From contig CAJVXN010000001.1 in NCBI GenBank assembly GCA_913009335.1, forward strand, positions 2,844 to 66,843: a DNA stretch of 64,000 nucleotides. The letters run 5' to 3'. Both the position numbers and the translations under genes were made by a program. Shown one piece after another: positions 851-59,478 of this stretch. Within the stretch, counting starts at the first letter, position 1. Every line of letters begins with the position of its first letter. The notes under the pieces are model-generated. The model was not told where the DNA came from, made no database searches, and saw only the letters and a list, made by a program, of their open reading frames with translations. Origin of the DNA: an uncultured bacterium. GTDB lineage: Bacteria > Omnitrophota > Gorgyraeia > Ghiorseimicrobiales > Ghiorseimicrobiaceae.

Positions 851-2149
851 TTATTGCGCTCCGATATCAGTAGGTGCCCGGCCCAGGCGATATAACAGCT
901 TAAGGCTACGGGCAATCTGGGTCTCTACTTTTATATTGCGACTCCTGCGATTAGGATAAATATCATAAAGCCTGCGAAAATCTATTGGGGTAACATTAAT
1001 CATCAATGAATTAGCCCCGGCACTTAGGGCTTTTTCTTTAGCGGGTTTAGCTAAAGTCTCGGTTGCTGTTGTAACCAATATACGCGACTTCTTATCTATT
1101 ATGCGGGCAAGAGAAATCACCCTTAGCATTTTAGCCAATCGTATTTTCTTTAAAGAAGCCAATGGAGTATCCAGATGGGGTATTAAAGGACCGAATGAAT
1201 ACATCTCAGGCTTAAGTTTTTTAGTTAACTTAATATTATTTAGAATATCGGTATCGGTCTCATTGGGAAGACCGACTAAAAATCCTGTTGCAACCAAATA
1301 GCCTATATTCTTTAATGATTTTATAAGTTTTAACCTGTCTTCTAATTTTTTTTCCGGCCGCAGCGCCGAGTATATTTTAGGATTTGCACTTTCAAATCTT
1401 AAAAGCGCGCCTCGCACTCCAGCGTCAAAAAATGCCTGATAATCAGATTCAGATCTCTCTCCTAAGCTTAAAAAAATCAATACCGCGTATTTCTGCCTTA
1501 TTTTTCTTATAATTTCTAATACGCGAGCTTTAGTATAATAGGCATCCTCTCCAGCCTGTAATACCAGCACCTTAAATCCGCGCGAATTTACCGCGTAATC
1601 TACTGCCTCTAAAATCTGGTTTAATTTTAAACGATAGCGCTTTAATTTTTTATTGCTCTTTCTAATACCGCAATAAAGACAATCCCTCACGCAATAATTA
1701 GATATTTCTATTATTCCATGAATACAGCATGAGTTATCTATATATTTATTCCGTATTCTATTGGCTAGTTGTTGCGAAAATTTTCCCTCATCGCTACTTA
1801 CTCCATTTAATAAATATAAATAATCAGTTACTGACAACCTGCGTTTTTCATCAATCTTCTTAATAATAGCATCATAAGGCTTAGAAAGCCTAAGCCCTGA
1901 ATAACTTTTATTAATAAGGCTTTCGTCTTGATTTTTTAATTTACTAAACAGAACCTTCCATGTTTTTAATATGCTCTGCGCTTGAAGATGCGGTATTTTG
2001 CGTATTGCCATGCCCGCCTGCACATAAACATAATCTCCGATATCAAAATCCAATAAATCCTTCAGGACTTTCCTTTTCTGGCCGAAATACTCAACAGTAG
2101 CAAATCTTTCTTCTATCTTTATAACCCTGGCGGGTATTGCGTAACACAC
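851..2149 (-). CDS. HydE-like radical SAM maturase with an N-terminal HypC/HupF-like domain (fusion protein, 432 aa)
   Basis: The N-terminus reads MCYAIPARVIKIE...VEYFGQKRKV...DIGDYVYVQAGMAI, the HypC signature (MCxAIP with Cys2; the position of the conserved His is a Gln). Residues ~90-432 match the HydE/BioB family: IIEISNYCVRDCLYCGIRKSNKKLKRYRL, VLVLQAGEDAYY, GPLIPHLDTPLA. This resembles Thermotoga HydE as I remember it. Confidence 0.6.
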   Translation of the reverse strand: MCYAIPARVIKIEERFATVEYFGQKRKVLKDLLDFDIGDYVYVQAGMAIRKIPHLQAQSILKTWKVLFSKLKNQDESLINKSYSGLRLSKPYDAIIKKIDEKRRLSVTDYLYLLNGVSSDEGKFSQQLANRIRNKYIDNSCCIHGIIEISNYCVRDCLYCGIRKSNKKLKRYRLKLNQILEAVDYAVNSRGFKVLVLQAGEDAYYTKARVLEIIRKIRQKYAVLIFLSLGERSESDYQAFFDAGVRGALLRFESANPKIYSALRPEKKLEDRLKLIKSLKNIGYLVATGFLVGLPNETDTDILNNIKLTKKLKPEMYSFGPLIPHLDTPLASLKKIRLAKMLRVISLARIIDKKSRILVTTATETLAKPAKEKALSAGANSLMINVTPIDFRRLYDIYPNRRSRNIKVETQIARSLKLLYRLGRAPTDIGAQ

Positions 2150-2347: not shown

Positions 2348-2800
2348 TTAATTTAGGATTTTTGTTATCTGATTAAGAACACCGGGAAAGCTTGCTTTAA
2401 CCTCGCTTGATAAATCATTGCAAAGAAGCAGATTATTCGGCTGGATACCAATAACATAAACTTTATTACGTATATCCAACATTTTATATAGTTTCAAAAA
2501 GTCCAACAATGAAAGACTGTGAGTCGATAATCTATTTTTAACAGTACCGGAATTTAAATCTTCTAAATAAAATCCTTTAACACTACCCGCGGGAGCACCA
2601 AAATCAGCTGCGTCAATTATAAATGTATAGAGATACTGCTTTATATAATTTAAAATATCTATACTCTGAGTGGAGAATTCAAAAAAATCAAAATCTTTAT
2701 TATTTAATTTATTTTTTAAATAAGCTAAGGCCTTAATCCCTACTCCGTCATCGCCCCGTAAAGTATTACCTACACCGGCAACCAAATACCGTTTAGACAA
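2348..2800 (-). CDS. [NiFe] hydrogenase maturation endopeptidase (HycI/HoxW/HybD family)
   Basis: LVAGVGNTLRGDDGVGIKA N-terminal motif. DAADFGAPAG and STHSLSL motifs. 150 aa. It overlaps the large-subunit gene by 8 nt. Confidence 0.8.
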   Translation of the reverse strand: MSKRYLVAGVGNTLRGDDGVGIKALAYLKNKLNNKDFDFFEFSTQSIDILNYIKQYLYTFIIDAADFGAPAGSVKGFYLEDLNSGTVKNRLSTHSLSLLDFLKLYKMLDIRNKVYVIGIQPNNLLLCNDLSSEVKASFPGVLNQITKILN

Positions 2801-4181
2801 ACTCTACCTCCAAGAGATGTGTCGAACAAGATATGCACGGGTCATATGCGCGGGCGAGCATCTCAAGATTTAGCTGTATTTCTTTTTTGGTTTTAGAAGG
2901 AAAAAGCTGAGGAACGAGTTCTTTCATGTCATTCTCTAAATTAAACAAGTTCTGTGCGGTAGGAATAATGCAGTTAGCGTGAGTAATTATACCGTTTTTA
3001 TCAACTGTATAATCATGATATAGGGTTCCGCGCGGTACCTCTACCGCACCCACCCCTCTGCCGGGCTTTACCTTAATTGGACGCTTCTTAACACTCGGCC
3101 AAGAAGTAACCAAACTTTCTTTTTCATTCAACCCCTTATCCAGTAATTCATCAATAATCTTAATCGACTCTTCCAGGCAATGCCTCCACTCAACAAGCTG
3201 TGCCACAGTATTTAAATAAGGATTATGAGATGGAGCAGAAAGACCTAAGCTTTTAGCTGCTTTTTTTGCCGCAGGATGAAGAAATTTATAGCTGTTATTA
3301 AAACGGGCAAGGGCTCCCACAGCATAAGACTCATCCTTAATAGAGGCAAATTTAGCCGTAGAGTAATCGCGAATAAATTCATTAACTACATTTAGATATT
3401 TCTGCGGATCAGTATTTTTCTTTGTTGAACTTACGTAAATATCACCGTCTAAATAAGCATAAGTTCCCAACTGTTTTAAAGAGACATACTGGGTGGGACG
3501 TATAAATTTCGGAAACTTTAATGTTTTGAATACCGCTACTGTCGCTTCGTAATCAACCCGAGAATCCGTCATCATTTTACGGAGTTTTAATAATGTCTTT
3601 TTAGCGGGCAGTTTGGTAAGCCCTCCGATGACAAAACTTATTGGGTGCACATGCCTACCGGCTAAAACATCACTGGTATAATCAGACATCTTCTTCATTC
3701 GTAAAGCAATTTCAATAACACTACGGTGAGTTTTAATCAAAGGGAATATACTATTTACGCCCAATAAATCAGGGGCAATTAAAATATAAAAATGTAATAC
3801 ATGACTGTCCATTGTCTCGGCATGCAATAACAATTGACGCAAGAGCTTAGTCTGCTTACTTACTTTAACACCCAGCGCAGCCTCTCCTGCCTTGATAGAA
3901 GCCAGGGTATGGCCGCAAGCGCAAATACCGCAAATACGACTGGTTATATGCTGCGCCTCATAAATAGAGCGGCCTACCAGCATAGACTCAAAAAATCGGG
4001 GCGATTCAATTACTTCAAAGCGACAATCAAGAAGCTTACCGTCCTTGACCTTAACCATAATATTGCCGTGTCCCTCTACGCGGGTTAAATATTTTACCTC
4101 TATATCCATATTACTCTTTGATTTCTTTAACATACTTTTTCTCCACAGCTGTATATAAAGTAAATTTATCAATAATCTCAT
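2793..4181 (-). CDS. [NiFe] hydrogenase large (alpha) subunit, group 3 (3b-like); the real start is probably the internal Met near 4109 (MDIEVKYLTRVEGHG)
   Basis: N-terminal RICGICACGHTLAS (RxCGxCxxxH) and C-terminal DPCISCSTHLLEVEFV (DPCxxCxxH plus a cleavable tail). Confidence 0.85.
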   Translation of the reverse strand: MRLLINLLYIQLWRKSMLKKSKSNMDIEVKYLTRVEGHGNIMVKVKDGKLLDCRFEVIESPRFFESMLVGRSIYEAQHITSRICGICACGHTLASIKAGEAALGVKVSKQTKLLRQLLLHAETMDSHVLHFYILIAPDLLGVNSIFPLIKTHRSVIEIALRMKKMSDYTSDVLAGRHVHPISFVIGGLTKLPAKKTLLKLRKMMTDSRVDYEATVAVFKTLKFPKFIRPTQYVSLKQLGTYAYLDGDIYVSSTKKNTDPQKYLNVVNEFIRDYSTAKFASIKDESYAVGALARFNNSYKFLHPAAKKAAKSLGLSAPSHNPYLNTVAQLVEWRHCLEESIKIIDELLDKGLNEKESLVTSWPSVKKRPIKVKPGRGVGAVEVPRGTLYHDYTVDKNGIITHANCIIPTAQNLFNLENDMKELVPQLFPSKTKKEIQLNLEMLARAYDPCISCSTHLLEVEFV

Positions 4182-4872
4182 TCACATCTAAACCGTAATT
4201 AGCAAGAATATCATTTTGCGCATCATTTGCGGGATTATCAATAAGCCCGCGGCAACCATAACATATATTGCCATTATTAACGCACCATGAGTTGCATCCG
4301 GCACGGGTAACAGGCCCCATGCAATTTTGTTCTTTTTGGTATAAACATACATTCTCGTTCATCTTGCATTCAACGCATACCGGATAATTCGGCACATCAT
4401 ACTTCTTTCCTAAAAGTAAACATTTAAATACCTCTGCCACTTCATTTGGATGCACAGGACATCCGTGTATATAATAATCAACTTTTATGACCTGATCAAT
4501 CGGCTTAACAGCTATGGTTTTAAACTTATCTGCCTTGTCTTTATATACACGCATTAAAGATATGTTTAAAGGCGTTCGGTTCTTTATCGCGTTTACCCCG
4601 CCGATAGTAGCGCAGGCACCAAGAGCTATAACAACCTTTGCCTGCTTTCGTATCCCGGTTATACGTTTAATATCATGCTCGGTTGAAATCGAACCCTCAA
4701 TAACAGCAATATCATAATCATCGCGAGGTTCACTCATTGCCTCGCGAAAATTTACTATCTCTATATGTTCAAGTATATCAAGAAGAACTGTATTAAGATT
4801 AACTATCTGCAGCTGACAACCTTCACAATCGGTAAAATCAAAAAAAGCGACTTTTGCCTTACTCTTTTTCAA
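4111..4872 (-). CDS. [NiFe] hydrogenase small (delta) subunit, group 3
   Basis: FDFTDCEGCQ N-terminal Cys pair. GACATIGG. C-terminal Cys cluster for a 4Fe-4S. 253 aa, typical of the short group-3 small subunit. Confidence 0.8.
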   Translation of the reverse strand: MKKSKAKVAFFDFTDCEGCQLQIVNLNTVLLDILEHIEIVNFREAMSEPRDDYDIAVIEGSISTEHDIKRITGIRKQAKVVIALGACATIGGVNAIKNRTPLNISLMRVYKDKADKFKTIAVKPIDQVIKVDYYIHGCPVHPNEVAEVFKCLLLGKKYDVPNYPVCVECKMNENVCLYQKEQNCMGPVTRAGCNSWCVNNGNICYGCRGLIDNPANDAQNDILANYGLDVNEIIDKFTLYTAVEKKYVKEIKE

Positions 4873-5720
4873 AATGCTTCCTCCATATTCCTGATATCAC
4901 TATATTTAAATACCGGTCCATTTTGACAAACATAGACACCGTTTATCTGACAATGACCGCATTTACCCAGGCCGCATTTCATTCTACGCTCAAGAGAAAC
5001 AATTATCTGTCTATCGGGAATTTCTTTCTTGAGTAATTCTTTGATTACGAACTTATACATCAAAGGAGGCCCAACTACTACCGCATACGTACGCATAGGA
5101 TTTAAATTAACGCCGGGAATAAGCTCAGTTATTAAACCAATATTCCCCTGCCAGTCAGGATCAGCTCTATCTACGGTACATCTAAACAAAATATCTAAGT
5201 GCCTGCCCCACTGGCCAATCTCATTATTAAATAACATATCCTTGGGACTCCTGCATCCTAATAATATATTTACAGCTCCGAAATCTTTACGATGATACAT
5301 GATATAGCGTATCAGACCTCGTAAAGGGACAATACCTAATCCTCCGGCAACAATCAAAATATCATTGCCAAAAAAATTCTCTACAGGAAAACCCTTGCCA
5401 AAAGGACCGCGCACACCAACTACATCCCCTTTTTTAAGATTATGCAAAGCGCTGGTTAACGTGCCTACATTTCTTACGGTTATCTCAAAATACCCCTTAT
5501 CAGTAGGTGAGGAGCATATTGAAATAGGCGCCTCCCCCCTACCGAACATCGAAATCTCGGCAAATTGTCCGGGCATATAATTAAAATCTTTATTATTCTT
5601 TTTCAATCTTAGGCGAAAAAGTTTTTCCAGATTTGTATACTGCTTAACCATGATAATCTCGGCCGGCATTGATCTATAAGGTGAATAGGGTAGTATTTTT
5701 TTAAATTCCGATTGAAACAT
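4869..5720 (-). CDS. Hydrogenase gamma subunit: FAD/NAD(P)-binding oxidoreductase with C-terminal 2Fe-2S (sulfhydrogenase HydG / PyrK-like)
   Basis: Ferredoxin-reductase-type fold motifs (GGLGIVPL) and C-terminal CGLGKCGHCQ. 283 aa. Confidence 0.7.
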   Translation of the reverse strand: MFQSEFKKILPYSPYRSMPAEIIMVKQYTNLEKLFRLRLKKNNKDFNYMPGQFAEISMFGRGEAPISICSSPTDKGYFEITVRNVGTLTSALHNLKKGDVVGVRGPFGKGFPVENFFGNDILIVAGGLGIVPLRGLIRYIMYHRKDFGAVNILLGCRSPKDMLFNNEIGQWGRHLDILFRCTVDRADPDWQGNIGLITELIPGVNLNPMRTYAVVVGPPLMYKFVIKELLKKEIPDRQIIVSLERRMKCGLGKCGHCQINGVYVCQNGPVFKYSDIRNMEEAF

Positions 5721-6753
5721 TTCTATGCTCTCTGATTAGGCTATTTACGGTCTCAGTCAAATTTATTTCTGCCATACAAGTACGACTGCACCTGCCGCAG
5801 CCAGTACAAAAATAACGGCTAAATTTATCTATAGGATACTTAAATTTACGATAATAGCGGTGTCTTTGACGGGCGGATCGACCCGGCCTAAAATCTTCCC
5901 CTCCGGCAACCTTGGCAAAATCATCCATCTGACATGAGTTCCAAAGCCGATAACGCAAACCATCATTAAGATTAAGGCTTACTTCATCCAAAACATCAAA
6001 ACAGTAACATGTCGGACATACAGCCGTACAATTCCCACACCCAACACACCTTTTACCTACATCTTTCCATATCTCACTATCATACAACTTAGAAAATACA
6101 GCATAAAGTTCAGTAAGACGCCCGATAAACTCTTCCTTAAATATTTTCTCTTTTTTCTTGCGTACTGCATCCAATAAATACCTATCGGCGGAAATGCATT
6201 TCTTTATATAGCTACGCTGCCGTAAGATGCTCTCGGCTTTTGCGGAATTAATATGGATTATATATTTATTCCCGACATCCGTAAGCATGATGTCGTATCC
6301 CCCCTTAGGCACGTGATTCCCCATAGATACACAATTTGCATATTTATCACAAGGAGTAAGACATTCAATGCCGACAGTAGTCATGCGGTCCTTACGATTG
6401 ATATAATTGGCATCTAAAGGCTCCTGGCGAAACACTACATCCATACACTGAATACCTGCTATATCACAAGTATGCACGCCAAATAATACGAATTCTTCAA
6501 ATTTACGTATTGCTTTTGCGGTCTTAAATGGTTTTATTTTAAACTTTAATAGTCGTTCCTTTTGTGGAAAATAATATTTTTTAGGCGGAAGTATTGTAGA
6601 AATATAATTTAGATCGAGCTCCTTAACGTCTTTAATCGGCCGAAATACATGCCTGCCATCTTTTTTCTTGGGCCCATAGAGCTTACCGTGATCTTCTAAA
6701 GATTCAAGCCACCGATTAAAATCTTTCTTACTTATCTTTGCGTATCTTTCCAT
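5701..6753 (-). CDS. Hydrogenase beta subunit, Fe-S protein (sulfhydrogenase HydB-like)
   Basis: CVGCGNCTAVCPTCYC and CTGCGRCSRTCM 4Fe-4S motifs. 350 aa. It is the first structural gene of a beta-gamma-delta-alpha operon. Confidence 0.7.
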   Translation of the reverse strand: MERYAKISKKDFNRWLESLEDHGKLYGPKKKDGRHVFRPIKDVKELDLNYISTILPPKKYYFPQKERLLKFKIKPFKTAKAIRKFEEFVLFGVHTCDIAGIQCMDVVFRQEPLDANYINRKDRMTTVGIECLTPCDKYANCVSMGNHVPKGGYDIMLTDVGNKYIIHINSAKAESILRQRSYIKKCISADRYLLDAVRKKKEKIFKEEFIGRLTELYAVFSKLYDSEIWKDVGKRCVGCGNCTAVCPTCYCFDVLDEVSLNLNDGLRYRLWNSCQMDDFAKVAGGEDFRPGRSARQRHRYYRKFKYPIDKFSRYFCTGCGRCSRTCMAEINLTETVNSLIREHRNVSIGI

Positions 6754-6762
6754 TTTTTTAAA

Positions 6763-7008
6763 TTAGCTTAGTTCATAGCTGTCAAAGCTAAGAGGTGCGC
6801 CGATTTCTGTTTCTTTTATTTCAAGCTTCACATCTTTCCAAGGCGTATTTTTTATAAACTGATAAAAATGCTCTTTAAAACGATCTCTCTTGATGCCGCC
6901 AAACAAAGAAAGTGCTACAACTATTTTTGAAACCCTGGATACATCATCTAAAGCTAGCTGCTTAGCAACTTTGTTCAACAAATCTTTTATTAAATTACTT
7001 TCATGCAT
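6763..7008 (-). CDS. HypA-like protein (N-terminal Ni-binding domain only; the Zn-finger domain is absent)
   Basis: It starts MHESNLIKDLLNKVAK..., matching the HypA/HybF MHE(L/M)S N-terminus. It is only 81 aa and has no Cys at all. Confidence 0.45.
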   Translation of the reverse strand: MHESNLIKDLLNKVAKQLALDDVSRVSKIVVALSLFGGIKRDRFKEHFYQFIKNTPWKDVKLEIKETEIGAPLSFDSYELS

Positions 7009-7070
7009 ATAATACCTATTTAATTTTAAGATTTAATTTTACCACAAATTAATTGTTTTGCAATAGTTAT

Positions 7071-7088
7071 TTGTGAAAATTATCACAA
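7071..7088. promoter_or_regulatory. Putative Rex operator upstream of the hydrogenase operon
   Basis: TTGTGAAAATTATCACAA against the Rex consensus TTGTGAAnnnnTTCACAA (one mismatch). It sits 63-80 nt upstream of the hypA-like start in an AT-rich promoter region. Rex is encoded at 34748-35383. Confidence 0.55.
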
Positions 7089-7135: not shown

Positions 7136-7720
7136 TTACTCTTCCCCCTTAAATTTTTCATAATCCTTTTCAGTATTTATGTTTGCAAATGACAGTCCCT
7201 GCGGGTCAAAATGCGATACCTCATCGTGCTTAATTTTTTTAATTTTTACCCCTGTGAGGAAATCCGTCAATTTAAAATTATTTTTTTCGAACTGACGCTT
7301 AATAGAACTAATGCAACTTTTTGAATAAAAGGCATAAAGAGGCTCAAGCTTCCGCCTAAATTCCGGCACAACCACATCATAATCTTTTATATAATTCCGC
7401 ATGTATTCTATTAATAAAGTATTTACATGCGGCATATCTGAGGCGATTAGAAAATTATACTGACCATCTGAATTTATTAATGCAGAATATATTCCCCCTA
7501 GGGGCCCTTTATCCAACGCAATATCTGAAAATAACCGCACGCCTAATGCTTTGTAGCGTTCTAAAGAATTAGTAATAATAATAAGATCATCGAATACAGA
7601 CTTTAATTCTCTTATCTGTCTTTCAATAATAGTCTCACCATTTAAATTTAGCAATCCTTTATGGGGAACAAACCTAGTCCCTTTCCCCCCGGCAAGTATA
7701 GCTGCGGTCACCTTCATCAC
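7136..7720 (-). CDS. mobA: Molybdenum cofactor guanylyltransferase
   Basis: AAILAGGKGTRF NTP-transferase motif. 194 aa. It lies inside a Moco cluster. Confidence 0.75.
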   Translation of the reverse strand: MMKVTAAILAGGKGTRFVPHKGLLNLNGETIIERQIRELKSVFDDLIIITNSLERYKALGVRLFSDIALDKGPLGGIYSALINSDGQYNFLIASDMPHVNTLLIEYMRNYIKDYDVVVPEFRRKLEPLYAFYSKSCISSIKRQFEKNNFKLTDFLTGVKIKKIKHDEVSHFDPQGLSFANINTEKDYEKFKGEE

Positions 7721-19289: not shown

Positions 19290-19325
19290 AAAAAAAAGAC
19301 ACTTATGCATTGATAAGTGTCTTAA
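19290..19325 (-). terminator. Rho-independent terminator after the octaheme cytochrome gene
   Basis: An 11-bp perfect stem, aagacacttat/ataagtgtctt, with a 6-nt loop. On the minus strand it is followed by an 8-nt U-run. Confidence 0.7.
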
Positions 19326-19434
19326 TGCGCTTTATCCTAGAAAGATATTTTTCTGTCATATCAATTATTTGCTTCGTGAAAGATATCACTAAATTTCTAT
19401 GCGTTTATTTTACCACTCTACTCTATGCTGTCAA

Positions 19435-26688: not shown

Positions 26689-28500
26689 TCATTTTGAATA
26701 CGCAGCTCCTATCTTACAGACTTTTACACAGATACCGCATTTAGTACATTTATTTAAATCTATTTCGTGCGGTTTTTTTACCATACCGGAAATTGCATCA
26801 GCAGGACATTCACGCCCACAAAGCGTACACCCCGTGCATTTATCAGCATTAATATAATACCTTACTAACGGTTTACATACCCCCGCGGGACACTTTTTAT
26901 GTTTTATATGATCCAGAAATTCATCGCGGAAATGCCGCAGAGTGCTTAATACCGGATTTGGCAGAGTTTGGCCCAGACCACACATTGAAGCATCTTTTAT
27001 CGCAATACAAAGCTCCTCTAAATAATCTAAATCTGACTCCTCTCCCTCTCCGTTAGATATTTTATCAAGAATTTCAATAAGTGTTATTGAACCTTCCCGG
27101 CAAGTAGAACACTTCCCGCAAGATTCATCACTTGTAAATGTGAGAAAAAACTTTGCGATATCAACAATACAGGTATCCTCATCCATTACCACCATTCCAC
27201 CTGAACCCATTATAGCTCCCACTTCCTTAAGACGTTCATAATCTACGGGAAGATGGAGAAGACGCGCGGGAATAAACCCTCCGGATGGACCTCCGGTCTG
27301 AACCGCTTTAAGCTTTTTATTATTAGGTATACCAGCGCCAATATCATAAACTATCTCGCGTAAGGTTATCCCCATGGGGACCTCAACTAATCCGGCATTA
27401 TTTACATTGCCGGCAAGAGAGAAAACTTTTGTCCCACGGCTTGTCTCTGTGCCTATCTGAGAAAACCACTTAGCCCCCCAACTTATTATCATGGGAACAT
27501 TGGCCCAGGTCTCTACATTATTAATATTAGTAGGGGCTCCCCAGAGACCGGATTGCGCAGGAAATGGAGGTTTCTGTGTTGGTTCAGGAACTATACCTTC
27601 CAAAGAATGAATCAAGGAAGTTTCTTCTCCGCAAACAAAGGCACCCGCACCCTCAAAAATTTCAATATCAAAACTAAAATCACTACCAAATATATTTTCT
27701 CCTAAGAGGCCATATTCCTTTGCAAGCTTTATCGCAGTCTTCATCCTGGCGATAGCTAATGGATACTCAATTCTTAAATATATATATCCATCCGTTGCCC
27801 CCATGGCATATCCACCTATGCACATACCCTCAATGATAGAATGCGGATCAGCTTCAACTATGCTCCTATCCATAAAAGCGCCTGGATCTCCCTCATCAGC
27901 ATTACATATAACATAACAACGAAGATTTTTGCTTTGTTTTCTTTTCTCTAATACCTGACTGCGGCATATATCCCATTTTTTACCTGTTGGAAATCCAGCA
28001 CCGCCTCTACCGCGCAGGCCCGCATCGGTAATTTCCTTTATTACGTCTTCAGGGCTCATACCGGTTAAAACTTTTGCCAGCGCTTTATAACCATCATTAG
28101 CGATATATTCATCAATGCTTTCGGGGTCTATTATACCGCGATTCCTTAAAGCAATAAGTCTCTGATCCTTAAAAAACGGAATATCACTTATTTTAGGAAT
28201 AGGGATATCTTTTCCTTCGGGCACATACATAAGCTCCTTTACCGGCCTACCCTTTAAGAAATGTTCCTGGACTAAATTGGGAATATCTTTCTCTTGTATA
28301 TATTGGTAGAAGATACCGTCAGGCTGGACTATAAGTATCGGCCCTTTAACACAAAGACCGCTTGCTCCAGTTTGTACAACTAAAACATCATTTTCAAGGC
28401 TCTGTTTTACGATTTCAGCCTCAAGGGCATTCTTTATTTTTAATGCACCATTAGATATACAATTGGTACATGTGCAAATCATTGCATGTAAACGCTGCAT
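26689..28500 (-). CDS. NuoF/HydB/HndC-like NADH-binding flavoprotein with an N-terminal thioredoxin-like 2Fe-2S domain and C-terminal 2x[4Fe-4S]
   Basis: GRGGAGFPTGKKW (NADH/FMN site). SLBB. CGKCSTCREG (N3-type cluster). C-terminal CTGCTLCGRECP and CTKCGICVKVC. 603 aa. Confidence 0.8.
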   Translation of the reverse strand: MQRLHAMICTCTNCISNGALKIKNALEAEIVKQSLENDVLVVQTGASGLCVKGPILIVQPDGIFYQYIQEKDIPNLVQEHFLKGRPVKELMYVPEGKDIPIPKISDIPFFKDQRLIALRNRGIIDPESIDEYIANDGYKALAKVLTGMSPEDVIKEITDAGLRGRGGAGFPTGKKWDICRSQVLEKRKQSKNLRCYVICNADEGDPGAFMDRSIVEADPHSIIEGMCIGGYAMGATDGYIYLRIEYPLAIARMKTAIKLAKEYGLLGENIFGSDFSFDIEIFEGAGAFVCGEETSLIHSLEGIVPEPTQKPPFPAQSGLWGAPTNINNVETWANVPMIISWGAKWFSQIGTETSRGTKVFSLAGNVNNAGLVEVPMGITLREIVYDIGAGIPNNKKLKAVQTGGPSGGFIPARLLHLPVDYERLKEVGAIMGSGGMVVMDEDTCIVDIAKFFLTFTSDESCGKCSTCREGSITLIEILDKISNGEGEESDLDYLEELCIAIKDASMCGLGQTLPNPVLSTLRHFRDEFLDHIKHKKCPAGVCKPLVRYYINADKCTGCTLCGRECPADAISGMVKKPHEIDLNKCTKCGICVKVCKIGAAYSK

Positions 28501-28648
28501 AACTTATATCCTCTAATGACGACACAAGTTATAAAGCTATAAACTATATAACTTGTACGTCGGAATTAGACCCTTGACATCTTTGATGTCAAGGGTAAGT
28601 TCGGACAGACACCTTACGTCATTAACATTCCGTAAGCTGTGCCCTCAC
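28501..28648. repeat. Structured intergenic element (three hairpins), paralogous to 29057-29176
   Basis: Shared segment cgtcggaatt(a/g)(g/a)acccttgacatctttgatgtcaagggta with a perfect 11-bp palindrome cccttgacatc/gatgtcaaggg. Flanking hairpins acaagttata/tataacttgt and cttacg/cgtaag. Confidence 0.75.
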
Positions 28649-29056
28649 TTACAGCACTCTCTCGCTGCCGACTGCCAAGGCGTATTCTTTAACAATATTT
28701 CCGCCAATTACGTGTTTTTCTAAAATTTCTTTAGCCTTATCAGGCGTTAAATCTACGTATTTAACCGGCGGTTCATTCTTCATTTCAACTGTTACCATAG
28801 GTTCACGACTGCAAAACCCCGCACAGCTGGACAATGTTAAAATCACATCTTTTAAATCGCGCTTTTCAATTTCTTCCATAAGGGCGGTCATAACAGTTCT
28901 AGCACCTGCGGCAATTCCACATGTACCCATATGCACAATCACTCTTGCGCGAGACTCTCCCTCGCGCAGATTTATTGTTTTCTTCATCTTCGCAGCTATC
29001 CTATCTAAATCTTCCGGTTTTAATTTTGGCATAATTAACTCCTTCAATGACGACAA
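28649..29056 (-). CDS. HndB/NuoE-type thioredoxin-like [2Fe-2S] ferredoxin (small)
   Basis: 135 aa. HMGTCGIAAGA...SSCAGFCSREP Cys pattern. Confidence 0.6.
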   Translation of the reverse strand: MSSLKELIMPKLKPEDLDRIAAKMKKTINLREGESRARVIVHMGTCGIAAGARTVMTALMEEIEKRDLKDVILTLSSCAGFCSREPMVTVEMKNEPPVKYVDLTPDKAKEILEKHVIGGNIVKEYALAVGSERVL

Positions 29057-29176
29057 AGGTTATGGAGTTAAAAACGACATAACTTTTGCGTCGGAATTGA
29101 ACCCTTGACATCTTTGATGTCAAGGGTAGATTCAGCCAGCAAGCTTACGAAGCGAAATCGTTCGTAAGCTTGGGCT
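29057..29176. repeat. Structured intergenic element (three hairpins), paralogous to 28501-28648
   Basis: Same conserved palindrome. The third hairpin is caagcttacgaa/ttcgtaagcttg, a 12-bp stem that compensates for the cttacg/cgtaag stem of the other copy. Confidence 0.75.
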
Positions 29177-30130
29177 TCATTTATACTTCTTTAAAACGTC
29201 ATCTACCTTGCTTATTTTCACATATCCATAAATATCATCATTAACAGATACTGCCGGTGATTGACCACAACAACCAATACAGTTAACCGTATCAAGGCTA
29301 AAGTTCAAATCTTTTGTCGTCTCACCGACTTTTATACCTAATTTATTCTCTAAAGAATGTAATATTTTATTTCCGCCTTTAACATAACAAGATGTCCCCA
29401 TGCAAACCCTAATAATATTTTTGCCTCTTGGCTTAAGGCTAAAAGCATTATAAAAAGTAGAAACGCGAAATACATGCGTAAACGGAAGTTCCATAAGCTG
29501 CGATACATACCAAAGGACATTTTCAGGAAAATAACCATAGGTACGATCAATTTCCTGTAAAATAAAAATAAGAGCTCCCTTGGTATTCCTGTAAGCATCA
29601 ACCATCTCTTCAACTCTGGACTTTTCTGACTTATCAAGTTTGGTCACAAATCGCTCATCATCTTCTGCTTCTTTCTTTAAATCAGTTATATTAAATATCC
29701 ATCTTAGTTTAGGATCATAGCTACGGTTCTTTACTATATTTCTAATAGTAGTTAAATAATCCGGGATGTATATATTGATATCATTTTTTACCTTAACCTG
29801 ACAAGCAAGACGCATATTATCATGTTTTTCCTCGCGGCTCATAAATATTTCCTCGGTAGGAAGTATTTCACCGCCGCCGTTTAATACTTTTATCTTGCAA
29901 TACCCACAAGTTGCTTTACCACCGCAAGAAGATGAAACATTTATATCATTCGCGGTAAGATCGGCAATTAAATAATTCCCGCCTTCAACAACAAACTCCT
30001 TCTCCTGGTCTTCCTGCTTAACGGTTATCTTACATTCACCATAATTAATAAGCACGCGGTCGGCGATGGTAAGCAAAACCGTTACCACGAGAAGAATCCC
30101 ATTCATTACTATTACAGGTAAAAAATTCAT
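29177..30130 (-). CDS. Membrane-anchored fusion: NqrF-type plant-like 2Fe-2S ferredoxin domain plus NuoE-type thioredoxin-like 2Fe-2S domain. It occupies the RnfB/NqrF position of the operon.
   Basis: N-terminal TM helix. SSCGGKATCGYCKIKV...LACQV (NqrF/ferredoxin 2Fe-2S). C-terminal RVCMGTSCYVKG...CIGCCGQSPAV (NuoE motif). 317 aa. Confidence 0.6.
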   Translation of the reverse strand: MNFLPVIVMNGILLVVTVLLTIADRVLINYGECKITVKQEDQEKEFVVEGGNYLIADLTANDINVSSSCGGKATCGYCKIKVLNGGGEILPTEEIFMSREEKHDNMRLACQVKVKNDINIYIPDYLTTIRNIVKNRSYDPKLRWIFNITDLKKEAEDDERFVTKLDKSEKSRVEEMVDAYRNTKGALIFILQEIDRTYGYFPENVLWYVSQLMELPFTHVFRVSTFYNAFSLKPRGKNIIRVCMGTSCYVKGGNKILHSLENKLGIKVGETTKDLNFSLDTVNCIGCCGQSPAVSVNDDIYGYVKISKVDDVLKKYK

Positions 30131-30154
30131 AATAAATAAACTTTGATAAGGAAA

Positions 30155-30742
30155 CTATTGAATCCTGACCATCCCTCCAAAACCTAAAAACGCTAAAGCA
30201 ATAATTCCCGCGATAATCATGATAATGCCCGGGCCGCGAAGCCCCTTAGGAATATCTGAAACTAATCTTAATTTTTCATTTATCGCTGCAACTATCAAGA
30301 TTGCCAGCATCCAGCCTACGGCTGAACCAAAAGCAAAAACAATAGTGGCTAAGTATGAATAGCTTCTTAGCACCATAAAAAGGGAGACTGCCAATACTGT
30401 ACAATTTACGGTTATCAGCGGAAGAAAAATCCCGAAAGAAGCCTGCAAAACGACAAAAAATTTCTCCATAATCATCTCAACCAGCTGAACGCTTGCGGCA
30501 ATAACAATGATAAAAACGATATAGTAAATAAGCTCACATCCTGCCGGAACAAGAATTAAATGATAAATAGGCCAGTTAATAGCTGCCGTAAGCGTTACTA
30601 CAAAAATTACGGCAATACCCATACCAAAAGCAGTCTTAAAACTTTTAGATAAAGCTATAAAAGGACACATGCCTAATAAATAGGTAAGCGCAATATTATG
30701 CGTAAAAACAGCAGCAATAAAAATAGTTAATAAATTACCCAT
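30155..30742 (-). CDS. rnfA: Rnf/Nqr complex subunit A (RnfA/NqrE family)
   Basis: 195 aa, six-TM, polar Cys in TM (GCELIYY). Operon position. Confidence 0.7.
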   Translation of the reverse strand: MGNLLTIFIAAVFTHNIALTYLLGMCPFIALSKSFKTAFGMGIAVIFVVTLTAAINWPIYHLILVPAGCELIYYIVFIIVIAASVQLVEMIMEKFFVVLQASFGIFLPLITVNCTVLAVSLFMVLRSYSYLATIVFAFGSAVGWMLAILIVAAINEKLRLVSDIPKGLRGPGIIMIIAGIIALAFLGFGGMVRIQ

Positions 30743-30744
30743 AA

Positions 30745-31374
30745 TTATTCCTTGGACTCAACTCCTGCGATAGTTCTTGTTATCCACAAATAAATACTCA
30801 ATACAAAAAATGCCCCCGGAGCCATAGCCATCATTACCCAATTTGTCCAACCATCAGGCATGACCCTAAAACCTAAAATAGTACCAAAGCCTAGCGACTC
30901 GCGCACAATAGCAATAATCACCAGTGTATACGAATAGCCCAATCCAACACCCAATCCATCCATCATAGAATGCGTTATTTTATTCTTACTGGCAAAAGCC
31001 TCGGCTCTTCCCATGATAATACAGTTGGTAATAATAAGCCCGACATAAGGACCGATAGCTTCACGTATTACAGGATAAAAAGCCTGCAGGAAACGGTCTA
31101 CAATAATTACAAAAGAAGCAATGGCTATCATGTAAGTTATAATACGCACACGAGCAGGTATAAAATTCCTTAAAGCGGAGATAGTAAGAGCCGTAAAGAT
31201 TAAAACAAAGGTAACGCCGGCACCCATAGCAATGGCATTTTCTACTTTATTTGTTACGGCTAAACCGGAACAAATACCTAAAAGCATACAAAAAACAGGA
31301 TTATCGCGCCAAAGGCCAATCATCATAACCTTAAACCCTTTCGCGCGTAGAAGTTTTTTTATGTTCTTTGCCAT
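30745..31374 (-). CDS. rnfE: Rnf/Nqr complex subunit E (RnfE/NqrD family)
   Basis: 209 aa integral membrane protein, paralogous fold to subunit A. Operon position. Confidence 0.7.
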   Translation of the reverse strand: MAKNIKKLLRAKGFKVMMIGLWRDNPVFCMLLGICSGLAVTNKVENAIAMGAGVTFVLIFTALTISALRNFIPARVRIITYMIAIASFVIIVDRFLQAFYPVIREAIGPYVGLIITNCIIMGRAEAFASKNKITHSMMDGLGVGLGYSYTLVIIAIVRESLGFGTILGFRVMPDGWTNWVMMAMAPGAFFVLSIYLWITRTIAGVESKE

Positions 31375-31377
31375 ATT

Positions 31378-31950
31378 CTAGTTTTCCTTAATAAGTGCTA
31401 AATACTCTCCCACCTGATTATTTATTAATTCTTCAAATGCCTTACTCGTCATTGTAGCTCCTGTAATCGCATCCACTTCATTTTCTGCCTTTGCCTTACC
31501 ATGAGGCACAATTTTTAAAGCTGGGAATACTTTTTTACCCTGAAACTTAGCTAAGTATTCTTCTTCGCTAATCCTGCCCCCTAAACCGGGAGTCTCCTCC
31601 TGATGTATAATAGTTATCCCTTTAATACTTTCAAAATCCGGATTAAAAGCAATAATTCCTTTAATCGGACCCCATACACCCGAACCCTTAATTCCAAATG
31701 CAACCTCCCTTGAGAGAGATAGATAGAATTCCTTATTTTCTTTTTGTACTACTTCAATATTATCAGAGAATATATCCTCTAAGTTTTCCTTGGTGTAAGA
31801 AATATCAAAAACATCAAGTACGCTTCTCTTCTTCTTAAGCTCCTCATTCTTTTGGATGATGGGAGTCGTATAATGATTAATCGCAACAAGCAACGTAGTA
31901 AAGAAGCTTCCCAGAAGTACAACGAAAATGATAATTTTTAATACTTTCAT
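31378..31950 (-). CDS. rnfG: Rnf/Nqr complex subunit G (RnfG/NqrC), FMN-binding
   Basis: N-terminal TM anchor. DAITGATMTSKAF (covalent-FMN Thr motif). 190 aa. Confidence 0.75.
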   Translation of the reverse strand: MKVLKIIIFVVLLGSFFTTLLVAINHYTTPIIQKNEELKKKRSVLDVFDISYTKENLEDIFSDNIEVVQKENKEFYLSLSREVAFGIKGSGVWGPIKGIIAFNPDFESIKGITIIHQEETPGLGGRISEEEYLAKFQGKKVFPALKIVPHGKAKAENEVDAITGATMTSKAFEELINNQVGEYLALIKEN

Positions 31951-31955
31951 TTATA

Positions 31956-33053
31956 TTAGGTGGTTGGTTTTAATTTACCAGTTACCTTCTTAGGTTCTTT
32001 ATATTTTACTGCAAGCACAACATGATCAATTAAAGGCGCAAAAGCATTCATTAAAAGTATGCTGAACATAACCCCTTCAACATAACCGGAAAGCGCACGA
32101 ATTAAAACTGTTAATAATCCTAGCAATATCCCCCCTACCCATTTCCCTTCCTTGGTAAAAGGTGAAGTTACCGGATCAGTAGCCATAAACATCGCGCCAA
32201 AAAGAAGCCCGCCGGTTAAAAGCTGAAAACTTGGCGGTGCAAATTTTAGGGGTGCTAAATTATTGCCGATAAGTGAGAATATAGCTACCGAAGCTAAATA
32301 GGAAAAAGGTATGCGCCAATTAACTATACGTGTTATAATCAAAAATATTCCGCCGAGAATTATTCCCAACCTAAAGACTTCACCGATACATCCCCCGCTA
32401 AACCCAAACAGTAAATCACTAAATGATGCTAAGACATTCTCACTACGAAAAGCATTTAAAGGTGTCGCAGCTGTTATGGCATCCACGCCAAATTTACTAA
32501 ACCCCCCTAAACCCCCGATATAAGGCTTGGGCCAACCTACGGTCATTATCAAAGGAAAGCATATAGTTAAAAAAATCCTGCCGACAATCGCCGGGTTAAA
32601 TATGTTTTTACCTGTTCCGCCAAATACTTCTTTTCCAAAAAATACACCAAACATAACCCCAAGGGCTACAACCCATAAAGGAATAGACGGCGGAAGCAGT
32701 AACGGAAAAATTAATCCCGTAACCAAAAATCCTTCATGTATTTCTTTCTTTCGCGCAACCGCAAAAGCAACTTCTACCACACCGCCGGCTATATAAGAAA
32801 CAAGTATGACTAAGATCACACGCAGTCCCCAAAAATAAACCGCTGCAGCTACAGCAGGAAGAAGAGCAATAATCACAAAACTCATATAACGTTTTATATC
32901 AAGATAATCGGTTATGTGAGGAACCGTATTTAGCTCATCCGTGCCAAAAAGAGCTCCATCCAGAGCAGTTAATACCGGTTTAAATTTACTTAGAAATTTA
33001 TTCTTCTCTACTAGCTTAAAACTTATATCCAACGCCTTACGGACTATCTTCAT
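31956..33053 (-). CDS. rnfD: Rnf/Nqr complex subunit D (RnfD/NqrB)
   Basis: 365 aa polytopic membrane protein. GGLLFGAMFMATDPVTSP conserved region. Confidence 0.7.
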   Translation of the reverse strand: MKIVRKALDISFKLVEKNKFLSKFKPVLTALDGALFGTDELNTVPHITDYLDIKRYMSFVIIALLPAVAAAVYFWGLRVILVILVSYIAGGVVEVAFAVARKKEIHEGFLVTGLIFPLLLPPSIPLWVVALGVMFGVFFGKEVFGGTGKNIFNPAIVGRIFLTICFPLIMTVGWPKPYIGGLGGFSKFGVDAITAATPLNAFRSENVLASFSDLLFGFSGGCIGEVFRLGIILGGIFLIITRIVNWRIPFSYLASVAIFSLIGNNLAPLKFAPPSFQLLTGGLLFGAMFMATDPVTSPFTKEGKWVGGILLGLLTVLIRALSGYVEGVMFSILLMNAFAPLIDHVVLAVKYKEPKKVTGKLKPTT

Positions 33054-34555
33054 AATTTAGTAGTTATTCCTTTGTATTCTTTAAGCCCTTTTAACTTAAA
33101 ATGCGGTAAAATGCTGCTCGACCGTTCGATTCCCTCCATGGCCAATTTTTTCTCGCCTTCTTTTATAAGTTCAAGAAGGGGAATTTTCGAAGGACACACA
33201 TAGCTGCATAAACCACATCCAATACAATTAAAAATCTTAAATCTTACTAAAGAATCATCGATTATATTATTTTTTACATACTTACCCAATAAATGCGGAA
33301 TTATCTGCACAGGGCAAACTTCTTCGCAATAATTACAGCTTATGCATGGCCTCAGTTCTCCGTGAATATTCGTATCCAGGGTCTTATCACAAAACGGAAA
33401 AACACTTGATGCAAACGTATTAGAATAAGCATCGCGCTTAACGCCCAAGCGAAGGAATGAGAAAAACTCTCTCTTATTATTCTCCGGCAAAGCAATAATC
33501 TTAGAAGTTGCCTTAGTTACAGGTAAAGATAAATCTGTAAGTTTATCACCCACAAGTGTATTTTCTAAAACAATTCGCGAACTTACATCAGTTCTTAAAT
33601 AAGATTTAAGAATATCCGCTATAGGCGTACCTATCCTCACCTTCAAATGCGGCGTATCATTAAACCCCGGTCCGCAGATGGCAATAGTACGCTCAATTAA
33701 AGGCTTCCCTTTTACTACTGCCTCATATACGGAAAGTATTGTCTGAGCGTTTAAAACAATTACCCCGAGATTAGCGGCATAATAGCCAAATGGAAACTTC
33801 TCACCCAAAACAGTCGCAACAAGCATCTCATCATACCCCTGAGGATACTTTGGCTCTAAAGAAATAATATTGATAAAGCCATATTGAGAAACAGCCTCAG
33901 ATAACTTTTCATTAATCTGCATATCAGTCTTACTTAAGGCAAGGTAAATATTAGCCTGAGGCATAAAAGCATGCAAAATCCGTAATCCTTCTATGTAATC
34001 TAAAACCCTTTTTTCGCCCAATAATAATTCTTGAGAAAGATTATAAACGTCAAATCCGATTGCAGGAACAATAATACTTCTAACATCTTTAGGGGTAATG
34101 ATTGAGCTTTTAAATTTTGTGGGAATTCCTGATTTATCTAAAGAAGTTACGCCAGCTAAATACAATATGCTTTCAATTTCCTCATTTTTTAGTTTCGCCC
34201 AATCAGAAGTAAACCCTTTAACTTTTTTACAATCATCTGCTTTATCTTTCCGGGTAGATATTCTTACTATTTGAGTTTCATGCCCCAAATAGTTTGAAAG
34301 CTTTATTTCTTTAACTACCCCAGATACAGATGCATGCACAGGGCTTGAGACATTTGAATCATCCCTTCCGATAATCTGTCCTGCGACTACAATATCACCT
34401 TCCTTTACCAAAGAAACAACACCCATCCCAAAACCTTGCTTTAAAGGAATAAGCACTTCATTAGGAATATCTTGCGTAGTCAGCATATCACGCGGACAAC
34501 CCTCAATTCGCCTGAAACGATACCCGCCCTTGAATGTATATTGTTTTTTCTTCAT
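33050..34555 (-). CDS. rnfC: Rnf complex subunit C-like (RnfC/NqrA family) with C-terminal 2x[4Fe-4S]
   Basis: N-terminal barrel-sandwich domain (SSPVHASVSGVVKEI). C-terminal CISCNYCEEVCP and CIGCGLCSYVCP. The expected GGAGFP NADH/FMN glycine motif appears as CGPGFNDTP. 501 aa. Confidence 0.6.
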   Translation of the reverse strand: MKKKQYTFKGGYRFRRIEGCPRDMLTTQDIPNEVLIPLKQGFGMGVVSLVKEGDIVVAGQIIGRDDSNVSSPVHASVSGVVKEIKLSNYLGHETQIVRISTRKDKADDCKKVKGFTSDWAKLKNEEIESILYLAGVTSLDKSGIPTKFKSSIITPKDVRSIIVPAIGFDVYNLSQELLLGEKRVLDYIEGLRILHAFMPQANIYLALSKTDMQINEKLSEAVSQYGFINIISLEPKYPQGYDEMLVATVLGEKFPFGYYAANLGVIVLNAQTILSVYEAVVKGKPLIERTIAICGPGFNDTPHLKVRIGTPIADILKSYLRTDVSSRIVLENTLVGDKLTDLSLPVTKATSKIIALPENNKREFFSFLRLGVKRDAYSNTFASSVFPFCDKTLDTNIHGELRPCISCNYCEEVCPVQIIPHLLGKYVKNNIIDDSLVRFKIFNCIGCGLCSYVCPSKIPLLELIKEGEKKLAMEGIERSSSILPHFKLKGLKEYKGITTKL

Positions 34556-34613
34556 ATTATATGTTTAGCCCCGATAAACTTTAGCTACACAAACTACAAA
34601 ACCTAACAAGCGA

Positions 34614-34703
34614 TTGTACTGCGTTTCGCACAGCACCCCACTGTATTTACCCAATGGTTGCACTGCGCTTTACGCAGCACCCCACTGTATTTATCTAATG
34701 GTT
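34614..34703. repeat. Two tandem ~44-bp direct repeats with internal palindromes, between rex and rnfC
   Basis: tgtactgcgtttcgcacagcaccccactgtatttacccaatggt and tgcactgcgctttacgcagcaccccactgtatttatctaatggt. The second contains ctgcg-cttta-cgcag. A Rex-box-like TTGTTAAATAGCTCACAG (3 mismatches) follows at 34701-34718. Confidence 0.7.
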
Positions 34704-34747
34704 GTTAAATAGCTCACAGTGAAATCAATCACGACCTTAGGAAAAAA

Positions 34748-35383
34748 TTAACTTTTTGATTTAGTTAAAAAATAGGCTAATCTCTCAAGCTCGATTGAAA
34801 GATCTATATTAAGCAGACCTACCGAAGGCGGAACCTGTGGTCTGATAGGAGCAAAATTAAGTATAGCTTTGACTCCGGATTTTATTAAAATATTTATTAC
34901 CTCCTGCGCGCCTTCACCGGGTGTGGCAACAATACCAATGGAAATATTACGTTCCTTTACAGTATTTCCTAATTCACTAATATCCTGTATCTTAATTCCT
35001 TCCAACGTCTTACCAACTCTACGCAAATCATTATCAAAGGCACAAATAATCTTAAATCCTTGTTTCTCAAATCCTTTATAAGAAAGCAAAGCTGTGCCTA
35101 AATTACCAACACCGGCTAAAACAACATCCCAATTTTTATCCGTACCAAGAATTGATAAAATAGCTTTTTTTAATGCCTCAACCTCATACCCCTTACCGGG
35201 TGTACCAAATTGGCCAAAATAGGTTAAATCACGTCTAACTTGAGCAGCCGTAAAGTTAGTTAATTTCGAAAGCTCATCAGAAGAAACATAATCTTTACCG
35301 CGCGATTCTACTAAAACCCGATAATACAACGAAAGTCTCGGAACTGCTGCTTGAGGAATTTTATTAATCATATAGAGACCCAT
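34748..35383 (-). CDS. rex: Redox-sensing transcriptional repressor Rex
   Basis: N-terminal winged helix (IPQAAVPRLSLYYRVL). Rossmann NADH-binding GVGNLG. 211 aa. Confidence 0.85.
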   Translation of the reverse strand: MGLYMINKIPQAAVPRLSLYYRVLVESRGKDYVSSDELSKLTNFTAAQVRRDLTYFGQFGTPGKGYEVEALKKAILSILGTDKNWDVVLAGVGNLGTALLSYKGFEKQGFKIICAFDNDLRRVGKTLEGIKIQDISELGNTVKERNISIGIVATPGEGAQEVINILIKSGVKAILNFAPIRPQVPPSVGLLNIDLSIELERLAYFLTKSKS

Positions 35384-35429: not shown

Positions 35430-35447
35430 TAGTTAAATGTTTCACAA
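35430..35447. promoter_or_regulatory. Possible Rex operator upstream of rex (autoregulation)
   Basis: TAGTTAAATGTTTCACAA. The right half-site TTCACAA is perfect and the left half has 2 mismatches. It sits 47-64 nt upstream of the rex start. Confidence 0.35.
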
Positions 35448-35581
35448 ATACTAATATGTTACTACTATACTAAAATAATTTTGATTGTCAAGAAAAATCT
35501 GCTGGCTGGCGATTAAATTTTTACTTGATGCCGCAAATACTTTTGGGGCGCAAGAAAAAAATACCTTAATCGAAGCTGAAT

Positions 35582-58257: not shown

Positions 58258-59478
58258 ATGAACTATCTTGGTATCGATATCTCAAAATCAACCGCCCGTT
58301 GTGTCATTATCAATAATGACGGCGAAAAAAGCGTAAAACCGTTTACGCTTAAAAACAACAAACACGAATTCAATGAACTTATTGAACGTTTAAAAAAACA
58401 TGATCTAAACTATGAAAATCTGCTTATCGGCATTGAAGCCACCGGTATTTGGTGGGAAAACATTTATTGTTTTCTAACTGAACAAAAATTTAAAATAGTT
58501 GTTCTTAACCCCCACCAGACAAACAAGTTTAGAGAAGCTTTGCGTAAAAAAGCAAAAACCGATGATATTGACGCTTATGTTATTGCCGGGCTTATGCGTT
58601 CAAACGAATACGCTCAAAGCTTTGTGCCTGAAGAAGCTGTTCAAATCCTAAAGGATTTTACTAAACTCAGATACAGGCTTATCAAAGATCAAAAAGACTA
58701 TCAAAGACAGGCATTAAGCTTGCTGGCTTTGGTTTTTCCTGAATATGAACAAACAAAACTAAAAAAACCTTTTGGTATTGCCGCGGCCGCGATTCTTAAA
58801 AAGTTCTCTACCGCAAAACATTTGGCTGAAGCAAAACCTAAACATATTGAGAAAATCGTTCGCTCAATCAAAGGCAATAATTTTAATATCAAGGAAATAA
58901 TACATCTTATACAAACAGCTAAAGACTCTATATATTCCGGCAGAGCTGCTTACGCTCGAGCCTTAAATCTTAATATTATGATAGAACAGGTTCAAAACAT
59001 AAATAAATCTATTGATGAACTTGATAAGGAAATCGAAAATATTCTCTCACCTAAAGATGATAATGAACCCTTTGATTTCCCAGGCGGCAATTTACTCTCT
59101 ATCCCTGGTATAGGGCTAAAAACTATTGCCTCTATTATCTCTGCTGTAGGTATTGATGGCCAATCTTTTAAAGATTCTAAAAAAATTATCGGATATATAG
59201 GATTTTATCCTAAAATCTATCAATCCGGTGAAACTTTAAAAGCAAACAAGATAGCTAAACGCGGCCCTTCATATTTACGTTCCGCTTTATACATAGCTGC
59301 TGTTGCCTGCGTTAAGCATAATGCTGAATTTAAAGCGCTATATCATAAAAAACGATCTCAAGGTAAAGCCGGTAAACAAGCTTTAATCTATGTCGCTAAA
59401 AAACTCGCGCACTTATGTTTAAGCATGCTTAAAAGCGGTGAATTGTATCAACCCCAAAGAGTTTTTATGCCTGTTTAA
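58258..59478 (+). mobile_element. IS110-family transposase gene (insertion sequence; element boundaries not resolved)
   Basis: MNYLGIDISKSTARCVII (DEDD-type N-terminus of IS110/IS116/IS902 transposases). The C-terminal domain carries GIGLKTIASIISAVG. It is the only substantial plus-strand gene in the window. Confidence 0.8.

Follow-up and report, generated by a model that had tools for sequence, protein, structure and literature searches.

A probable Rex operator at the promoter of a [NiFe] hydrogenase operon in an uncultured Omnitrophota bacterium

An 18-bp palindrome at positions 7071–7088 of the window, as the whole 64-kb stretch of DNA analysed here is called, was found in front of a [NiFe] hydrogenase operon and is, as judged by sequence comparison, very probably a genuine binding site of Rex, a repressor that senses NADH. 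The explanation as a whole, in which Rex would repress the hydrogenase (hyd) operon, control the promoter of its own gene and probably also govern the rnf genes, is given a probability of about 0.8, based on comparisons among related loci and on analogy with characterised Rex systems.

Results

A near-consensus Rex box before the hydrogenase operon

The sequence TTGTGAAAATTATCACAA, which reads TTGTGATAATTTTCACAA on the gene (minus) strand, is present at 7071–7088 and forms an 18-bp inverted repeat that differs at a single position from the published Rex consensus TTGTGAANNNNTTCACAA (the ROP consensus of Brekasis & Paget 2003 and Ravcheev et al. 2012, as quoted in PMC6391272). The box is located in the 127 nt that separate mobA (stop at 7136) from an 81-aa hypA-like ORF (ATG at 7008), that is, in intergenic DNA in the promoter region of the [NiFe] hydrogenase operon, and lies 63–80 nt upstream of the hypA-like start codon; the original prediction of a one-mismatch box at this place and at this distance from the first gene of the operon is borne out by the coordinates. 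With at most one mismatch to the consensus, it is the sole match in the window, where chance would supply between 0.017 (first-order Markov model) and 0.026 (independent bases) such matches per 64 kb. At a threshold of at most three mismatches, eight matches were observed against 4.45 expected, a count that was reached in 9 of 100 shuffles and hence represents no enrichment. The 5+6+5 core of the box, TGTGA-N6-TCACA, is also a perfect match to the CRP-type core, and as this core fits the Rex and CRP families alike, the link to Rex needed testing.

The target operon (2348–7008, minus strand) comprises, by Pfam assignment, the hypA-like gene, hydB (Fer4_22), hydG (FAD, NAD and 2Fe-2S domains), hydD (small subunit), hydA (large subunit) and the gene of a HycI protease. 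The best NCBIfam matches of the operon are the sulfhydrogenase subunits ShyABCD/HydABGD, all of them under the equivalog cutoffs, and the product is therefore described as a group-3b-like, NAD(P)-linked [NiFe] hydrogenase and not as an orthologue of the Pyrococcus enzymes; as in group 3b, the subunits follow each other as beta, gamma, delta and alpha, and the gamma subunit is of the type that binds FAD and NAD(P). The hyd gene order is kept in at least 60 loci, and the hyd locus of the window is identical to that of the metagenome-assembled genome GCA_011051015.1 (marine metagenome).

Several features of the surrounding genes were also observed. The 81-aa HypA-like protein (6763–7008, minus strand) has an N-terminal MHE motif and zero cysteines, and therefore is without the zinc domain of canonical HypA, a protein of about 113 aa; its homologues head the hyd operon in many Omnitrophota loci. 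A gene at 851–2149 (minus strand) encodes a 432-aa fusion of a HupF/HypC domain with a radical-SAM and a BATS domain, and its counterparts, at 43–46% identity, stand directly after hycI in many relatives. All ORFs of at least 100 aa are on the minus strand except that of an IS110-family transposase (58258–59478, plus strand), and the plus strand of the window contains 15% G against 23% C.

Conservation across related hydrogenase loci

A HydB scan with one genome per species returned 66 related hyd loci (44–86% identity), nearly all of them from Candidatus Omnitrophota. These loci, 688 kb in total, contain 12 boxes with at most one mismatch against 0.16 expected; 11 of the 12 are located upstream of the hyd operon, and the twelfth (locus L035) precedes a second HydB/HydG-like gene pair. 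Boxes at the same hyd position were also observed with two mismatches in L034, L036 and L026 and with three in L063 and L035, and the check on conservation that the original prediction had proposed is answered by the 11 related hyd promoters with at most one mismatch together with about five more at two or three. Among nine lineage representatives, the 14 arm positions of the box are 92% identical and the four central positions 58%, and the 40-nt flanks on either side show an identity of 28–33%, which is the random level for their composition. The box has therefore been kept while the surrounding DNA was fully turned over, and, with flanks about 30% identical, the related loci are not near-identical strains. 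The outer motif positions, a T before TGTGA and AA after TCAC, are likewise conserved at 1.2–1.7 bits. The hyd boxes have in common an orientation-specific asymmetry (TTGTGAT...TTCACAA, with TTGTGAT on the gene-proximal strand), and thus derive from one ancestral operator and did not arise independently.

The box is confined to a part of the loci. Nothing better than four mismatches was detected within 650 nt upstream of hydB in about 45 of about 62 related hyd loci, and hyd regulation is therefore lineage-specific, which agrees with the taxon-specific Rex control of hydrogenases described elsewhere (PMC6391272). The 650 nt upstream of hydB in L003, the closest relative with upstream sequence, contain no box because this region is rearranged, with a 640-aa gene ending 86 nt before hydB and hypA absent. 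Two of the loci (L047 and L049), on contigs assigned to Candidatus Methanoperedens nitroreducens, carry a hydBGDA operon that shares 64% identity with that of Omnitrophota; the presence of hydBGDA in these two archaeal (ANME-2d) assemblies could be due to lateral transfer or to a binning problem.

The Rex protein and the association of the motif with rex genes

The genome that carries the box also has a cognate rex gene, which is located at 34748–35383 (minus strand) and encodes a redox-sensing repressor of 211 aa with the domains of the Rex family, an N-terminal winged helix (PF06971) and a Rossmann NAD(H) domain with its GxGxxG motif (PF02629, CoA_binding). The protein matches the NCBIfam equivalog NF003993 at 245.6 bits (cutoff 217), its alignment with Rex proteins of solved structure (5zz5 at E = 2e-46) covers the full length, and both GVGNLG and QVRRDLTYFGQFG are intact when it is aligned with the Rex proteins of T. 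maritima and Thermus.

The motif is tied to rex genes by position as well as by co-localisation. A Rex-like box starts −63 to −67 from the start codon in all 10 of the rex genes compared (nine relatives and the window). In eight relatives rex itself comes immediately after the hyd operon, and in L063 it precedes the operon by a few kb. When metagenomes were scanned with the window Rex, 80 loci (373 kb) were obtained, in which three boxes with at most one mismatch were found against 0.05 expected, and all three adjoin a rex gene of the clade of the window (L071, L073 and L074). The boxes of L073 and L074 are perfect and precede an operon that encodes a HydB/HydG-like flavoprotein together with a NuoH-like subunit, and that of L071 is identical to the hyd box of the window and precedes a formate/nitrite transporter gene. 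A point against the explanation is that, in the relatives with rex next to hyd, Rex belongs to another clade than that of the window and no box was found upstream of the hyd operon.

Two Rex clades, 35–40% identical to each other, were observed in Omnitrophota. The one with QVRKDFSxFG adjoins the hyd operon (L023, L025, L028, L030, L034, L038, L062, L063 and L066), and in this clade two boxes bracket the promoter of rex itself; the other, with QVRRDLTYFGQFG, is the type found in the window and in L069, L071 and L073–L075, and adjoins rnf or other redox operons. The boxes at L035 5009–5026, L073 4177–4194 and L071 1112–1129 each stand 12–13 nt after an 11–12/12 promoter, and the operon of L073 contains HydB/HydG-like, 4Fe-4S and NuoH-like genes; judged by these sequence features, the three gene sets are candidate further members of the Rex regulon of the clade.

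Promoter architecture

A sigma-70 promoter with an extended −10 element, TTGCAA-16-TGgTAAAAT, is predicted at 7036–7063 (minus strand), beginning 7 nt downstream of the hyd box, and no other intergenic minus-strand promoter match was found in the hyd region; on this promoter model, the box probably covers positions of about −59 to −42 relative to the active promoter. The hexamer GATAAT inside the box was considered as a third −10 candidate and was dropped because the hexamer differs among the relatives, which have GATAAA, GATAAG or GATTAG.

Two layouts were observed for boxes and predicted promoters. In the first, a sigma-70 promoter matching at 10–12 of 12 positions lies upstream, and the box begins 5–40 nt (mostly 12–19 nt) after the −10 hexamer, and hence at or just after the transcription start; this layout is seen at 14 hyd promoters among the relatives, at the second hydB-like operon in L035, at the operon of L073, at the transporter gene of L071 and, within the window, at 19374 and at the rex promoter, which has it in L069 too. 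The hyd box of L035 overlaps the promoter instead. In the second layout the box ends 5–7 nt before the −35 element; five relatives have this arrangement at rex and the window has it at hyd, where it is the only hyd promoter with its box upstream of −35. The position occupied by the upstream hyd promoter of the relatives reads TTGGCG-17-TTTAAA in the window, a decayed sequence in which A2 and T6, the key bases of the −10 element, are missing.

Rescan of the window and a third box

A position weight matrix (PWM) trained on non-window sites only was used to scan the window and gave three matches of at least 15 bits against 0.05 expected per 64 kb: the hyd box at 7071 (26.3 bits), a box at 35430 (18.8 bits) and a box at 19374 (15.4 bits). 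All three are located in intergenic DNA, which makes up 9.3% of the window.

The candidate third Rex operator (19374–19391; TAGTGATATCTTTCACGA on the gene strand) starts 15 nt after a predicted 11/12 promoter (19434–19407, minus strand) and is located upstream of an operon for a porin, a 4Fe-4S protein, an ArrA-like reductase and a NarJ-like protein; the profile score of the ArrA-like reductase, 1252 bits, is below the cutoff of 1600. An 11-bp hairpin followed by a T-run was observed at 19323–19296 (minus strand), between the box and the porin operon, and a transcript from the 19434–19407 promoter would therefore end after about 100 nt and might serve as a small RNA or as an attenuator. On the contigs of four relatives, where the contexts are mostly non-orthologous, the porin homologues are not preceded by a box.

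The rex promoter, rnf and the rex–rnfC spacer

The second PWM match is a predicted Rex operator at the rex promoter (35430–35447, two mismatches; TTGTGAAACATTTAACTA on the gene strand), which starts 16 nt after the −10 hexamer of a predicted 11/12 promoter, TTGACA-16-TATAGT (35464–35491, minus strand). The closely related locus L069, where Rex is 80% identical to that of the window and the synteny HPPase–RluA–rex–rnfCDGE matches, keeps both the rex promoter (TTGACA-16-TATATT, with a gap of 14 nt) and the box, and the 5′ UTR beyond them diverges; the L069 box stands at −114 from the rex start because this 5′ UTR is longer. The box that the original prediction had placed upstream of rex is thus upheld by its PWM score, its position, the 11/12 promoter and its conservation in L069.

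The genes rnfC, D, G, E and A, followed by NuoE-like and NuoF-like genes, are located directly downstream of rex (26689–34555, minus strand). The rnf cluster is without a canonical rnfB, and the genes that come after it encode a protein in which Fer2 is fused to a NuoE-like part, then a short NuoE-like protein, and last a NuoF-like protein whose C-terminal 2x[4Fe-4S] domain resembles RnfB (26689–30742, minus strand). From the rex promoter as far as the NuoF-like gene, no promoter or terminator above chance was predicted, and, given also that the gap between rex and rnfC is 54 nt in relatives, rnf is probably transcribed from the rex promoter, so that a separate rnfC operator is not needed. By this sequence arrangement, the rnf and NuoEF-like genes are probably under Rex by way of the rex promoter. 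The proposal that Rnf–NuoEF is under Rex control accordingly stays plausible through co-transcription with rex, and the box proposed before rnfC is not supported.

This rnfC box, first given as 34701–34718 and really located one nucleotide further on at 34702–34719, lies in the rex–rnfC spacer (34556–34747, minus strand). Neither its quality as a motif, with three mismatches and less than 6 bits, nor its conservation, being absent in L072 and partial in L069, is that of a Rex operator, and it forms part of a stem in a structured insert specific to the window. The spacer measures 192 nt in the window against 54 nt in L069 and L072, the extra DNA includes a tandem repeat of two 44-nt copies (34614–34701), and the spacer RNA is predicted to fold at −66.3 kcal/mol (z = −4.9). 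A weak palindrome at 34717–34734 (7.9 bits) was set aside as background, 2.5 matches of at least 8 bits being expected per 64 kb. Each 44-nt copy carries a small hairpin; the repeat was also considered as a dispersed element and rejected, as no second occurrence was found in the window or in 152 loci. Rfam searches of the whole window at gathering thresholds gave zero matches, and permissive Rfam-type searches on two leaders gave chance-level matches only.

Discussion

Alternative readings of the hydrogenase-promoter box

The central claim of the original prediction, a Rex operator at the hydrogenase promoter, is supported at the sequence level by an island of conservation across at least nine lineages and by a motif tied to rex genes. 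The same island bears on the reading of the box as a functionless AT-rich palindrome. A genome of 2–3 Mb would hold about one chance match with at most one mismatch, and the author of the original prediction probably screened many motifs. The question had to be decided by comparison: the box stands at the same place in at least nine lineages whose flanks are at random identity, the related hyd loci hold 12 boxes where 0.16 would be expected, and the box of the window falls beside a promoter in the intergenic 9% of the DNA, which together make an origin by chance hardly credible. A regulator of the CRP/FNR family might be considered in place of Rex, as the core of the sites of this family is TGTGA-N6-TCACA, to which the box is a perfect match, and as a box at about −59 to −42, centred near −50, would suit an activator. 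This alternative is nevertheless very improbable, because the conserved outer bases agree with the consensus of Rex and disagree with that of CRP (AAATGTGA...TCACATTT), because the motif occurs at a fixed spot upstream of rex and beside rex genes, because the boxes of the relatives downstream of the −10 element are in a repressor position, and because no CRP-type or cNMP-binding domain protein was found among the 60 annotated ORFs of the window.

The position of the box in the window, upstream of −35, is less typical of a repressor and counts against repression, and it raises the reading that Rex binds without acting as a simple repressor, either activating or fine-tuning transcription from about −50 or occupying an ancestral relic of low effect. 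That the window has the only hyd promoter with this arrangement, and that decay has left only TTGGCG-17-TTTAAA of the ancestral upstream promoter, would both fit such a change of role; yet the box of the window still scores 26.3 bits, the characterised Rex proteins in the literature covered were all repressors, and five relatives likewise have a box 5–7 nt before −35 at their rex promoters, which points to a maintained arrangement, so that this reading is considered unlikely, if less so than a site of the CRP/FNR family. Repression by Rex is therefore retained as the preferred reading of the box.

Proposed mechanism

Under Rex repression, at a low NADH/NAD+ ratio the Rex dimer encoded at 34748–35383 would bind 7071–7088 and repress the hypA-like gene, hydBGDA and hycI, by analogy with known Rex proteins; as NADH rises, Rex would be released from its site, so that the NAD(P)-linked hydrogenase would be made and offer an outlet for reducing equivalents as H2. 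From its place upstream of −35, bound Rex might repress by blocking the UP element and the contacts of the alpha-CTD and of sigma region 4, or might stop read-through from the upstream Moco genes. Rex would also control its own promoter through 35430–35447, so that rex–rnf, and probably the NuoEF-like genes too, would be de-repressed with NADH. An extension of this scheme is more speculative and, taken jointly, rather doubtful: in this genome the Rex regulon may reach the ArrA-like operon by way of a promoter under Rex, and the terminated leader of about 100 nt behind that promoter might be an attenuator or a Rex-dependent small RNA, and the lineage-specific Rex regulon of Omnitrophota may have been rewired several times, with the hyd operator moved in this genome from a place after the promoter to one upstream of −35 and one of the two Rex clades attached to hyd.

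Comparison with known Rex systems

Rex operators before hydrogenase genes, rnf and rex are already known, and what is new here is the phylum, Omnitrophota; no mention of Omnitrophota together with Rex was found in the literature searched. Like the ROP sites quoted above, the box of the window is an 18-bp inverted repeat in the promoter of a redox operon, with a cognate rex gene that has its own box; it differs from them in that the host is an uncultured member of Omnitrophota and that the hyd box lies upstream of −35 and not over the promoter core or start. The core is identical to that of CRP/FNR sites, but the box differs from these, in favour of Rex, in its outer bases, in being associated with rex and in occupying a repressor-type position in relatives, and the window is without a CRP-type gene.

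The nearest functional parallel is Caldicellulosiruptor bescii, in which Rex represses the NiFe and FeFe hydrogenase genes and rex, as demonstrated by EMSA (PMC6391272). Boxes likewise precede the hydrogenase genes and rex in both cases, and hydrogenase synthesis would here too be coupled to the NADH/NAD+ ratio; the NiFe enzyme of C. bescii is however membrane-bound and ferredoxin-dependent, and binding there was demonstrated by EMSA, whereas the one described here is a soluble, group-3b-like, NAD(P)-linked enzyme and the evidence comes from sequence comparison only. In Desulfovibrio, Rnf has been predicted to be controlled by Rex (Ravcheev 2012, as cited in PMC4215793), and it belongs to the predicted Rex regulon of Caproicibacterium (PMC9600882). 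The window resembles both in having Rnf in a predicted Rex regulon and differs in that rex heads a probable rex–rnf unit, with an autoregulated rex promoter and no separate rnfC operator.

Significance

Knowledge of Rex itself is unchanged by the present finding. The clade-specific motif and the two promoter layouts can be used for regulon reconstruction in complete genomes. The members of Omnitrophota are uncultured and mostly very small-celled, and their physiology is inferred from genomes alone; for this lineage, the operators described here provide the testable statement that hydrogen metabolism and the exchange between ferredoxin and NAD+ would be tuned to the NADH/NAD+ ratio.
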